DNA of 64,000 nt from IMG/VR virus record IMGVR_UViG_3300009285_000002; one strand, written 5' to 3'. The notes beneath the pieces are model-generated. The model had not been told where the DNA came from, did no database searches, and saw nothing but the letters and a program-made list of their open reading frames with translations. A program made the position numbers and the translations under genes. The DNA is from a virus. Lineage: Duplodnaviria; Heunggongvirae; Uroviricota; Caudoviricetes. Positions 58,541 to 61,189 of the stretch are shown here, in pieces. How positions within the stretch are numbered: position 1 is the stretch's first letter; each line of letters starts with the position of its first letter.

Positions 58541-61189
58541 ATGATTAGATACCTAGATAATCTAGTAGACAGAATAGAAGATGCTAAACTCCTTATTAAA
58601 CTAATTCCTACGGTATCTAGAATTGGATTAGATACAGAGACTACTGGATTAGACCCATACACTTCTCAGGTTCTTCTTATTCAGTTAAAGGTGGGAGAGG
58701 ATATTTTTATACTGGATAGGGGGAAATTGGGGGTAAAGTTTATTACTAATATTATAAACTTAATTAATCAAAATAATATTCTATGTATCGGACATAATAT
58801 AAAGTTTGATATGAAGATGATTAAACAAGATACAGGGGTTTGGTTAAAGAATGTATATGATACCATGATTATTGAAGCTGTAATTACAGCCGGACTTGGC
58901 GGTAAGTACGTCTCTTTATTGGAGTTGGTAAGCAAATACTGTGGTGTTGTATTAGAGAAGGAATCAAGATTAGAGTTTCTAGAGCAAAATCATCAATCAA
59001 TTTTTACAGAGAGGCAGCTAACTTATTCAGCTACAGACGTTCTTTATCTACTCGATATCTATGATAAGCAGATAGGATTAGCGGGATTAGCGGGATTAGC
59101 TAAGATAGTAGAATTGGAATGCAAAGTCGAACCTGTAGTGGCTAGAATGGAAAGAGAGGGGATCACGTTGGATATTCCTTACTGGATTGAGTTAACAGAG
59201 CTTGCAAAGAAGAATGCAGTCGAATTGAAGGGCAAAATGAAGGACATTCTATTCGCGGCTTTGCCAGCACATAAATACAAGAACGCCTATGAATTCGCCA
59301 ATGCTATAGCAATCCCAGTAAAGACTAAGAAATTAACGGCTGTACTAGAATCTATCATAGATCCATTAGCAGTAATGACATGGGCTAAAGACGTTTTCAA
59401 TATAGGTTCGCACAAGCAATTACTAACCGCCCTAAACTTAGCAGGAATAGATACACCATCCACGGATGAAAAGGTACTAAATAAGCTACCTAAGAATGAA
59501 GTTATTGACACCATCCTCGATTATCGTGGATATGAGAAGATGCTCTCCACTTATGGATATAATGTAATTGAAGCCGCTAATAAAGTAACAGGCAGAATAC
59601 ATGCGGACTTTAATCAGGTAGGCGCTGCAAGCGGTAGATTTAGTTCTAGTGGTGGGGTCAACATGCAGAATATTCCTACTCATAATGGTTATAGAGAGGG
59701 GTTTATAGCTAGAGATGGGTATAGTTTATGCGCATGCGATTTTTGTTTACCTCCAACTACTAAGGTACTTAAATCTGACTTCTCGTGGGTGCAAATTAAA
59801 GACCTGTCTTTGGGGGACGTATTAATAGGACTTGACGAATCTGTAGAAACAGGCAGAGTTTATCGAAGAATGAAACCATCCACTGTTGAGACCCTAGAAC
59901 CAAAGGTTTTGCCTAGCTACAAAGTTACCCTAGAAAGCGGTAAGGTGCTGTTCAGCTCTGAGAATCATAAGTGGCTCACAATAAGCACAAATATTGGAAG
60001 ACACGTTTGGACGGCTACTAAAGATATAACCGCCTCAAATAGCTTACTTAAGTTTACAGATACATGGGAGAGGGCTACTGATTATGAGTCAGGATATTTA
60101 GCTGGAATGCTAGATGGCGAGGGTTCATTCAACGATAGCGAAAGAGGGGCACACCTGACCTTTTATCAAGTCCCTGGTTTAGTACTAGATAAAACAATAG
60201 ACATTCTAAATAAGGCCGGAATTATATTTACCGGCCCATTTGACCACCAAAGCGGATATAACCCAGAGAGAACGGCGTCTTACTTATCTATAAGTGGGGT
60301 AGCACAAATATTAAAGATTTTTGGTTCTATAAATCCAGTTAGATTGATAGCCAAAAGCCCAACATTCTGGTCTGGAAGAAGTCCATTCAAGTCTGGCACT
60401 AAAGATAGAGTAGTGTCCGTAGAGTATGTAGGAGATATGGAAGTTGTCGCAATGCAAACGTCTGCTAGAACTTTCTTGGCGGATGGATATTGGACTCATA
60501 ATTCGCAACAAGAATACAGATTGGCTGGCGCTATAAGCAAAGAACCAAAAATCATAGAGGCGTATGTTGATGGGTTTGATATGCACACAGCCACCGCGGC
60601 CAATAGGTTTATGAAGGGACTCGAAGACGTAACTAAAGATGAAAGAAATAAAGGGAAGGCCATAAATTTTACTATTCTGTATGGAGGAACTGAGTACGCT
60701 TTGGGTAAAAACCTAAACATTCCAAAAAATGAGGCGCTTGAGATTCTGGAACAGTTCTTGAACAATTACCCAATGTTAGCTAAGTTCAAACAAATGGCGG
60801 GGAGCAAGATTATAGAACTTGGCTATTCAGTTACTATGATGGGTAGAAGGAGGTACTGGAAGGGGCTACCGGCTTTTTCCACACCACAGGAGATAGTAAA
60901 CTATGAGAACCGTATGAAACGGGAGGGTATTAATCATATAATACAGGGAACTGGCGCAGATGTAACTAAGCTATCCATGCTAGAAATGTTCGATAATAAC
61001 CCATTCGGGGACATGTTTATTCCTATATTGCAGGTGCATGACGAGATAGTAGCAGAAGTACACGATAGTGTTATAAAAGAAGCAGAAGCATTTATGTGCT
61101 ACAGTATGGAAAAAGCTTTTCAGCCGTTTCTAGGGGTAATACCAGCTAAAGTTGACTCCAAATTATCAAAACGCTGGACCAAGTCATAG
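58541..61189 (+). CDS. DNA polymerase I (family A) with 3'-5' exonuclease domain, containing an intein
   Basis: Exo I motif IGLDTETTGLD. Motif A is split as ...YSLCACDF | intein | SQQEYRLAGAIS (DYSQIELR-like). Motif B RNKGKAINFTILYGG and motif C LQVHDEIV are present. Confidence 0.8.
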   Translation: MIRYLDNLVDRIEDAKLLIKLIPTVSRIGLDTETTGLDPYTSQVLLIQLKVGEDIFILDRGKLGVKFITNIINLINQNNILCIGHNIKFDMKMIKQDTGVWLKNVYDTMIIEAVITAGLGGKYVSLLELVSKYCGVVLEKESRLEFLEQNHQSIFTERQLTYSATDVLYLLDIYDKQIGLAGLAGLAKIVELECKVEPVVARMEREGITLDIPYWIELTELAKKNAVELKGKMKDILFAALPAHKYKNAYEFANAIAIPVKTKKLTAVLESIIDPLAVMTWAKDVFNIGSHKQLLTALNLAGIDTPSTDEKVLNKLPKNEVIDTILDYRGYEKMLSTYGYNVIEAANKVTGRIHADFNQVGAASGRFSSSGGVNMQNIPTHNGYREGFIARDGYSLCACDFCLPPTTKVLKSDFSWVQIKDLSLGDVLIGLDESVETGRVYRRMKPSTVETLEPKVLPSYKVTLESGKVLFSSENHKWLTISTNIGRHVWTATKDITASNSLLKFTDTWERATDYESGYLAGMLDGEGSFNDSERGAHLTFYQVPGLVLDKTIDILNKAGIIFTGPFDHQSGYNPERTASYLSISGVAQILKIFGSINPVRLIAKSPTFWSGRSPFKSGTKDRVVSVEYVGDMEVVAMQTSARTFLADGYWTHNSQQEYRLAGAISKEPKIIEAYVDGFDMHTATAANRFMKGLEDVTKDERNKGKAINFTILYGGTEYALGKNLNIPKNEALEILEQFLNNYPMLAKFKQMAGSKIIELGYSVTMMGRRRYWKGLPAFSTPQEIVNYENRMKREGINHIIQGTGADVTKLSMLEMFDNNPFGDMFIPILQVHDEIVAEVHDSVIKEAEAFMCYSMEKAFQPFLGVIPAKVDSKLSKRWTKS
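59744..60502 (+). mobile_element. intein (253 aa) with LAGLIDADG homing-endonuclease block inside the PolA motif A
   Basis: N-terminal Cys (CLPPTT...) and C-terminal ...FLADGYWTHN followed by Ser+1. Internal LAGMLDGEGSF is a LAGLIDADG block. Removing it restores DF-SQQEYR. Confidence 0.7.

Follow-up and report, generated by a model that had tools for sequence, protein, structure and literature searches.

An in-frame insertion splits motif A of a phage DNA polymerase

We analyzed a 64,000-nt stretch (the window) of the IMG/VR virus record IMGVR_UViG_3300009285_000002, an uncultured groundwater phage of the Caudoviricetes, with a focus on its DNA polymerase gene, polA, and on the 253-residue element that interrupts it, which is almost certainly an intein. 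In the list of open reading frames (ORFs), polA occupies 58541..61189 on the plus strand and encodes an 882-residue precursor made up of a 3'-5' exonuclease domain, a family A polymerase domain and, in frame, the 28.1 kDa insertion at 59744..60502 (plus strand), which homologues, an NCBIfam model and a fold model assign to the class 1 inteins. Pfam PF01612 (3'-5' exonuclease) matches residues 10-176 of the product (2e-30), and PF00476 (family A polymerase, 1.2e-73) is broken into two stretches, the second of which begins at residue 655. Without the insertion, the spliced sequence aligns to the Klenow fragment (E 2e-41) with DFSQQEYR, KAINF..YG and QVHDE all covered. With its exonuclease domain and motifs A, B and C present, the host protein is a family A DNA polymerase.

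The N-extein (58541..59743, plus strand; residues 1-401) was delimited by alignment with relatives and with Klenow and ends in CAC-D400-F401, where D400 is the catalytic Asp of motif A, equivalent to Klenow D705. The C-extein (60503..61189, plus strand), which holds motifs B and C, opens with Ser655, the +1 residue (60503-60505) and first letter of SQQEYR (Klenow S707-R712). Between them, Cys402 to Asn654 of the precursor reads CLPPTTKVL...LAGMLDGEGSF...TFLADGYWTHN, preceded by ...YSLCACDF and followed by SQQEYRLAGAIS. The initial annotation, made from the sequence alone, had called an intein in PolA motif A at 59744-60502; its coordinates proved exact and every string it quoted is present.

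Nearly all relatives of the whole PolA protein among P0002-P0040, whose identity falls from 84% to about 40%, have 613-635 residues, compared with the 629 expected for the window protein once the insertion is subtracted (882-253). In an alignment of eight of them (81-44% identical), the sole large gap runs exactly from Cys402 to Asn654, and the closest relative without the intein (P0002) reads ACDF|SQQEYRLAGAI across the junction. S655, Q656, E658 and R660 are invariant in this alignment, and the +1 residue is thus the native motif A serine. Excision of the 253 residues yields DFSQQEYR, and CDFSQQEYR lies over Klenow ADYSQIELR without a gap (chain index 382 + 323 = 705), which bears out the earlier proposal that a DYSQIELR-like motif would be restored. 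Because the spliced sequence aligns ungapped to Klenow motif A, the insertion falls between the equivalents of Y706 and S707, a point that, in Klenow literature numbering, we take to be one residue past the catalytic Asp and three before the steric-gate Glu. The insert is therefore in frame, is missing from orthologues and restores a host motif when removed, as is the case for inteins.

The reconstructed homing site has its left half at 59729..59743 (...ATGCGCATGCGATTTT|) and its right half at 60503-60517 (TCGCAACAAGAATAC), both on the plus strand. An intein-less polA allele from a related locus (L002:1005-2894) carries the insertion site ...TGTGACTTT|TCACAGCAAG.... Around the junction, the joined window site reads TGCGA-TTTT|TCGCA and the intein-less allele TGTGA-CTTT|TCACA.

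The insertion carries the splicing residues and predicted fold of a class 1 intein

Residue conservation of the intein family was scored over 170 sequences. The N-terminal splicing (HINT) region (59744..60055, plus strand; intein residues 1-104) was assigned by conservation, by a beta-rich HINT fold in an AlphaFold2 model and by Foldseek, and contains block A (Cys1, L9, D12, W15). Block B, assigned by conservation, lies at 59957-59968 (plus strand; S72..H75, with W77 following). The C-terminal splicing region (60392..60502, plus strand; residues 217-253) contains blocks F and G (T239, T243, A246, G248) and ends in His252-Asn253 at 60497-60502. Across the family, the conserved splicing positions are C1, T6, L9, D12 and W15; S/T72-x-x-H75-x-W77; and T239, T243, A246, G248, H252 and N253. 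Position 1 is Cys in all 170 sequences, providing the expected nucleophile, and H75 is equally invariant, while position 72 is Ser or Thr in 165/170 (Ser 132, Thr 33). Block B had been described as a T..H motif; the histidine stands, and the window carries S72-E-N-H75, the Ser variant of TxxH. At the other end, H252-N253|S655 joins a C-terminal His-Asn to one of the Ser/Thr/Cys residues used at +1. The Cys1, terminal His-Asn and Ser+1 named in the initial annotation are thus all in place, and they recur throughout the family: among the homologues listed in the search described below, 173 full-length copies all have Cys1, the last two residues are H-N in all but one (HQ), and the +1 residue is always S, C or T.

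NCBIfam NF038136 (intein-containing radical SAM protein) covers the whole length of the insert (E 3e-9). The AlphaFold2 model of the intein, built from a 37-sequence alignment, has a pLDDT of 94.6, and its best whole-model Foldseek matches in the PDB are the PI-SceI, TliVMA and PhoVMA inteins and PI-PfuI (E 3.5e-9 to 2e-7). Further matches at probability 1.00 include the DnaB, DnaE, GyrA and RecA mini-inteins and hedgehog Hint, so that the model points to a HINT fold; a phmmer comparison of the single intein with PDB sequences gave marginal matches only (gp41-1 at 0.033).

One homologue is an intein whose splicing has been observed. In tblastn searches of GenBank phages, full-length matches (33% identity, E 6e-32) were found in cluster C1 mycobacteriophages such as LinStu, Catera and ScottMcG, on an insertion in their terminase-like gene (E 2e-31 to 6e-32 across these inteins). 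The ScottMcG gp245 intein (Pham3880-g) splices in an MBP-intein-GFP reporter, leaving visible precursor (Kelley et al. 2016, PMC5050341). It shares with the window intein the block pattern CLxPxT...DLxW, S/T..H.W, GYLAGxxDGEG, RPxRL and TxTxxAxG..HN, a size of about 250-270 residues, a single LAGLIDADG motif and Ser+1. The two differ in site and host: the ScottMcG intein sits in the ATPase region of a terminase-like protein of an actinophage, whereas the window intein sits in PolA motif A of an uncultured groundwater phage.

Two other identities were tried and rejected. A class 3 intein, which lacks a position 1 nucleophile and relies on a Trp-Cys-Thr triad with a block F Cys, is ruled out by the invariant Cys1, and there is no conserved Cys in the block F region (residues 223-246). 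A bacterial intein-like (BIL) domain is ruled out by Cys1, by His-Asn plus Ser+1 and by the existence of intein-less orthologues. We regard the identification of the insert as an intein as nearly certain, and its residues, predicted fold and kinship with the ScottMcG intein indicate that it is very probably also splicing competent.

The nuclease part is a single LAGLIDADG domain

Between the two splicing regions lies a single LAGLIDADG endonuclease-type domain (60056..60391, plus strand; intein residues 105-216) with an alpha-beta-beta-alpha-beta-beta-alpha fold. The LAGLIDADG motif itself (60092..60124, plus strand) reads G117-YLAGMLDGE-G127, in which E126 is the putative metal-binding acid, and it is followed by two conserved residues of active-site type, Q142 (60167-60169, plus strand) and K204 (60353-60355, plus strand). 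The family pattern is G117-YLAG-x-x-D124-G-E126-G, then Q142, then an R-P-x-R-L-L-x-K block (R197, P198, R200, K204). E126 is Glu and Q142 is Gln in 169/170 sequences each, R200 is kept in 168/170, and position 204 has a basic residue (K or R) in 130/170. Both an acid-ending LAGLIDADG helix and the alpha-beta-beta-alpha-beta-beta-alpha core are therefore present. A profile of the domain matched PDB sequences of I-MsoI (7e-6), the C-terminal domain of I-AniI (1.6e-5) and PI-PfuI (2e-4), and in the profile match Q142 is aligned with an I-AniI Gln that we take to be catalytic. Fold searches with the central domain returned I-Tsp061I, I-CvuI, PI-PfuI and I-CeuI, and our own alignment to the I-CreI sequence suggests that E126, Q142 and K204 correspond to its D20, Q47 and K98.

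The initial annotation had described a LAGLIDADG homing-endonuclease block. Motif and fold are indeed present, but the module is not the usual two-motif one, and its nuclease activity is putative: the nuclease part is a single LAGLIDADG domain of about 105 residues, one complete half-enzyme that resembles I-MsoI and I-CreI. With one motif per chain, the two-motif monomer form is excluded. The LAGLIDADG active site forms where two such helices pack together, and any nuclease activity would consequently need a dimer of two inteins, each chain contributing one helix. In the predicted structure the HINT domain carries the nuclease domain at the same topological position as in PI-SceI, PI-PfuI, TliVMA and PhoVMA, with TM scores of only 0.4-0.5. 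These inteins are 360-454 residues long and are pseudo-dimeric monomers with two LAGLIDADG motifs, and PI-SceI adds a DNA-recognition region; the window intein, in contrast, has one domain of about 105 residues. It also differs from the homodimeric single-motif enzymes I-MsoI, I-CreI, I-CvuI and I-CeuI, which are free-standing, intron-encoded proteins of 150-210 residues with extra C-terminal helices, whereas the window domain is shorter, is embedded in a HINT domain, has relatives whose target sites are not clearly palindromic and forms a dimer only putatively. All of the biochemically characterised intein endonucleases known to us are two-motif monomers. In the literature we searched, there was no description of a single-motif, dimer-dependent nuclease architecture in an intein, which is absence of evidence only.

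Nuclease ORFs that are out of frame or antisense have been reported inside some actinophage inteins. Two antisense ORFs overlap the 3' part of the window intein and the C-extein (60311-60586, minus strand, 91 residues; 60496-60765, minus strand, 89 residues); neither has a Pfam match, and both are probably chance ORFs.

The intein belongs to a large family that occupies many genes

A word-indexed homologue search with the intein alone returned nothing, and an exhaustive phmmer search was needed. Against protein clusters at 50% identity, phmmer gave 2,849 matches at E <= 1e-3, of which 2,191 reached E <= 1e-10, and each of the 150 best-matching clusters, which were listed, matches end to end over 237-279 residues. 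The flanks of the 173 full-length copies are of dozens of unrelated kinds. For 61 members the host protein was identified: PolA in 25, UDG in nine and RecA in three, the rest including several terminases, UvrD-type helicases, a portal, ERF and Prim-Pol. In GenBank phages, weaker tblastn matches fell on terminases of Ralstonia phages, portals of Gordonia and Mycobacterium phages and a metallophosphoesterase of Xanthomonas phage DES1. The 253-residue element is one unexceptional member of an intein family that is large and already known. The NCBIfam match (E 3e-9), the tblastn match (E 6e-32), the 2,191 clusters at E <= 1e-10 and the exact gap in eight relatives together place the insertion beyond chance. 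Many metagenomic proteins (P0122, P0123, P0125-P0139 and others) carry two copies of this intein family of about 250 residues at different sites of one protein. Within the window, we found no second copy of the family, and no other inteins in ten of its larger ORFs.

The motif A site is a recurrent target. A family member occupies the same PolA motif A site in 32 of the other 149 listed clusters, and this position (Klenow Y706|S707) is an additional active-site insertion point for inteins in family A polymerases. Among 50,697 GenBank phage records, the family was found in terminase, portal and phosphoesterase genes only, with none in PolA; the site is heavily used in uncultured phages, yet the family is not seen in PolA of sequenced phage isolates. 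Bacterial DNA polymerase I appears among listed intein-containing proteins in a one-line mention in PMC4760082, and our literature search found neither the motif A site nor the family of the window intein described for PolA. Among other PolA relatives from metagenomes (P0041, P0059, P0074-P0077 and P0082), unrelated inteins interrupt four further conserved positions, GGTA|C..N|TGRFSS, GRFS|C..N|CSRPN, NFGL|C..N|CYG and QG|C..N|SNAD. One of these proteins, P0075, is interrupted at the motif A position of the window intein (DY|SQIE), by an intein of the canonical two-motif LAGLIDADG kind.

The nearest intein-bearing PolA (P0121) has an intein 63% identical to that of the window and a nuclease domain 56% identical, whereas the exteins are only 44.5% identical. 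Dozens of PolA proteins closer to the window polymerase than P0121 lack the intein, and the distribution is sporadic. PolA-site inteins cluster in part: the nearest neighbour is also a PolA-site intein in 22/33 cases, against about 6 expected. A sporadic, site-specific distribution is the pattern expected of homing elements.

Rebuilt homing sites show no clear excess of symmetry

Simple symmetric recognition by a homodimer would predict an excess of palindromic symmetry at the target sites. We fetched 59 IMG/VR loci with family members and rebuilt 49 homing sites, representing 44 junction types, then placed the centre of symmetry at each position up to 8 nt from the junction and scored the inverted symmetry of nine-pair arms. 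Averaged over the 49 rebuilt sites, the best arm score was 5.39, compared with 5.24 for positions drawn at random from these loci (P about 0.13), and no single centre offset stood out across the sites. By hand calculation, the I-CreI site would score 7/9 on the same measure, a value reached by only 7 of the 49 rebuilt sites. In three individual sites (those of the window, of the intein-less allele L002 and of L037), symmetric arms flank a 4-bp centre that has the junction at its 3' edge; these cases are anecdotal. The result counts mildly against simple symmetric recognition.

A proposed route from precursor to homing, and its alternatives

We propose that translation would yield a precursor of 98.7 kDa in which 253 residues separate D400 from the remainder of motif A; with the catalytic Asp split from its motif in this way, the precursor should be inactive. 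Splicing would begin with an N-S acyl shift at Cys1, followed by trans-esterification, with the hydroxyl of the native motif A serine (Ser+1) as acceptor, and by cyclisation of Asn253 with His252 assisting. A final O-N shift would then give a 70.6 kDa polymerase with an intact DFSQQEYR and a free intein of 28.1 kDa. All three masses are predicted, and the computed mass of the polymerase agrees with the spliced product of about 70 kDa anticipated in the initial annotation. These steps are suggested by the conserved residues, by the predicted fold and by the experimental splicing of the homologue with 33% identity. That the precursor follows the class 1 splicing steps and that the intein contains a nuclease-type domain of LAGLIDADG fold is, taken jointly, a likely reading of the locus. 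For annotation, the 882-residue ORF would be better named an intein-containing DNA polymerase I, with a mature product of 629 residues in which motif A is restored.

Beyond splicing, the free intein would probably act in homing as a dimer with LAGLIDADG nuclease activity. The most likely mode is a homodimer of two inteins resembling I-CreI or I-MsoI, which would cut motif A of intein-less polA genes in co-infecting phages, after which recombinational repair would copy the intein in; the phage's own downstream RecA would be available for this step. For the window intein specifically, we put the chance that the nuclease is currently active at about even. More generally, we tentatively suggest, with a little less than even confidence, that the family may carry a minimal single-domain LAGLIDADG nuclease working only as a dimer of two inteins, in which case PolA motif A would be a main homing site. 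If this dimer reading is true, nuclease activity would depend on the concentration of the intein and perhaps on its excision from a multimeric host protein. The single-domain module thus poses a testable question, that of dimer-dependent homing by inteins, and the family could supply very compact (28 kDa) scaffolds that combine splicing and nuclease functions.

Several observations weigh against an intein that both splices and homes. As regards splicing, Pfam PF14890 (Intein_splicing) scores the single window sequence at 12.5 bits against a gathering cut-off of 35.8, and, in a hand alignment, Val/Ile seems to stand here in place of the Asp that many class 1 inteins typically have in block F. 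PF14890 is matched at E <= 1e-5 by 8/61 family members, and because the family diverges from the Pfam seed we read the sub-threshold score as a limit of model sensitivity, with no defining feature missing; the splicing-proficient ScottMcG homologue appears to share the Val/Ile, again by hand alignment. As regards the nuclease, LAGLIDADG_3 gives the window sequence 16.4 bits, below its cut-off of 22.5, and is matched at E <= 1e-5 by 16/61 family members. Pfam alone misses the intein, with both relevant models under threshold. The main alternative is a splicing-competent intein whose LAGLIDADG domain would by now be inactive in homing, perhaps in decay, perhaps only binding DNA like WhiA or stabilising the fold, and whose inheritance would be mainly vertical. 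We assign it a little less than an even chance. In keeping with it, neither conservation across the 170 sequences nor the fold reveals a second LAGLIDADG motif in the intein chain. Residue 197 (60332-60334), in the conserved R-P-x-R-L block just past helix 3, is Asn in the window intein and Tyr in its closest relative P0121, compared with Arg in 140/170 family members (82%). Target-site symmetry is not significant, the intein matches its genome in composition (GC 41.2% against 40.7% for the window, with similar GC3) and so bears no compositional sign of recent acquisition, and no co-conversion tract is evident beside the insertion when compared with the intein-less allele L002. Against an inactive domain stand the retention of E126 and Q142 in 169/170 sequences, of R200 in 168/170 and of K or R at 204 in 130/170, and a nuclease domain that is more similar between the window and P0121 (56%) than are the host polymerases (44.5%). 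Furthermore, 44 junction types in 49 viral loci would be hard to reach without active mobility in at least many members.

Two further alternatives concern the fate of the precursor. Splicing might be redox gated, with Cys(-3) of CAC-DF|C1 forming a disulfide with Cys1 that traps the precursor under oxidising conditions, and a Cys(-3)-Cys1 trap has reportedly been established for the Pyrococcus abyssi MoaA intein. Cysteines do stand at -3 and -5 directly before Cys1 (SLCACDF, 59723-59746), and the ScottMcG homologue left visible precursor in its reporter. We nonetheless consider such gating improbable: the intein-less P0002 has the same CACDF, which marks these cysteines as a trait of the polymerase subclade rather than of the intein, and most other PolA-site carriers have no Cys at -3. 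The 253 residues could instead be a permanent accessory domain of the polymerase, or an assembly chimera, that is never excised, and the presence of a homologous segment at the same PolA position in 32 other listed clusters would fit a permanent domain. Against this, the closest polymerases lack precisely these 253 residues, an outcome of the comparison with intein-less relatives that the initial annotation had proposed as a check; the catalytic motif would be left split one residue past its metal-binding Asp; terminase, portal, UDG, RecA, helicase and other proteins contain this module too; and all splicing residues are conserved. The identical 882-residue protein (P0001) is found in at least three groundwater assemblies from two metagenome sequencing runs, so that the insert is not a chimera of assembly. 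We therefore give a segment that is never excised almost no credence.

Genomic context of polA

A megablast search of GenBank phages with the polA gene gave no match, and the best PolA matches by tblastn were only about 28% identical; the host phage thus has no close sequenced relative. Just upstream of polA, 20 tRNA genes are clustered at 50632-58164, the last of which, a tRNA-Pro gene (58090-58164), lies between polA and a gene for an RlaP-family nucleotidyltransferase of the RNA-repair type (57152-57925). A phage RecA gene (61233-62249) follows directly downstream, and its product could supply the recombinational repair needed for homing. In the intein-less relative (L002:2894-5579), three additional small ORFs (67, 180 and 118 residues) stand between polA and recA, and an HNH_3 endonuclease gene follows recA; both the HNH_3 gene and the three small ORFs are missing at the corresponding positions of the window. 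Elsewhere in the window, a phosphodiester glycosidase (NAGPA) gene at 79-1530 lies beside a glycosyltransferase gene, a DUF2828/DUF7788 gene occupies 26960-28378, and a class II glutamine amidotransferase-like protein is encoded at 34669-35868.

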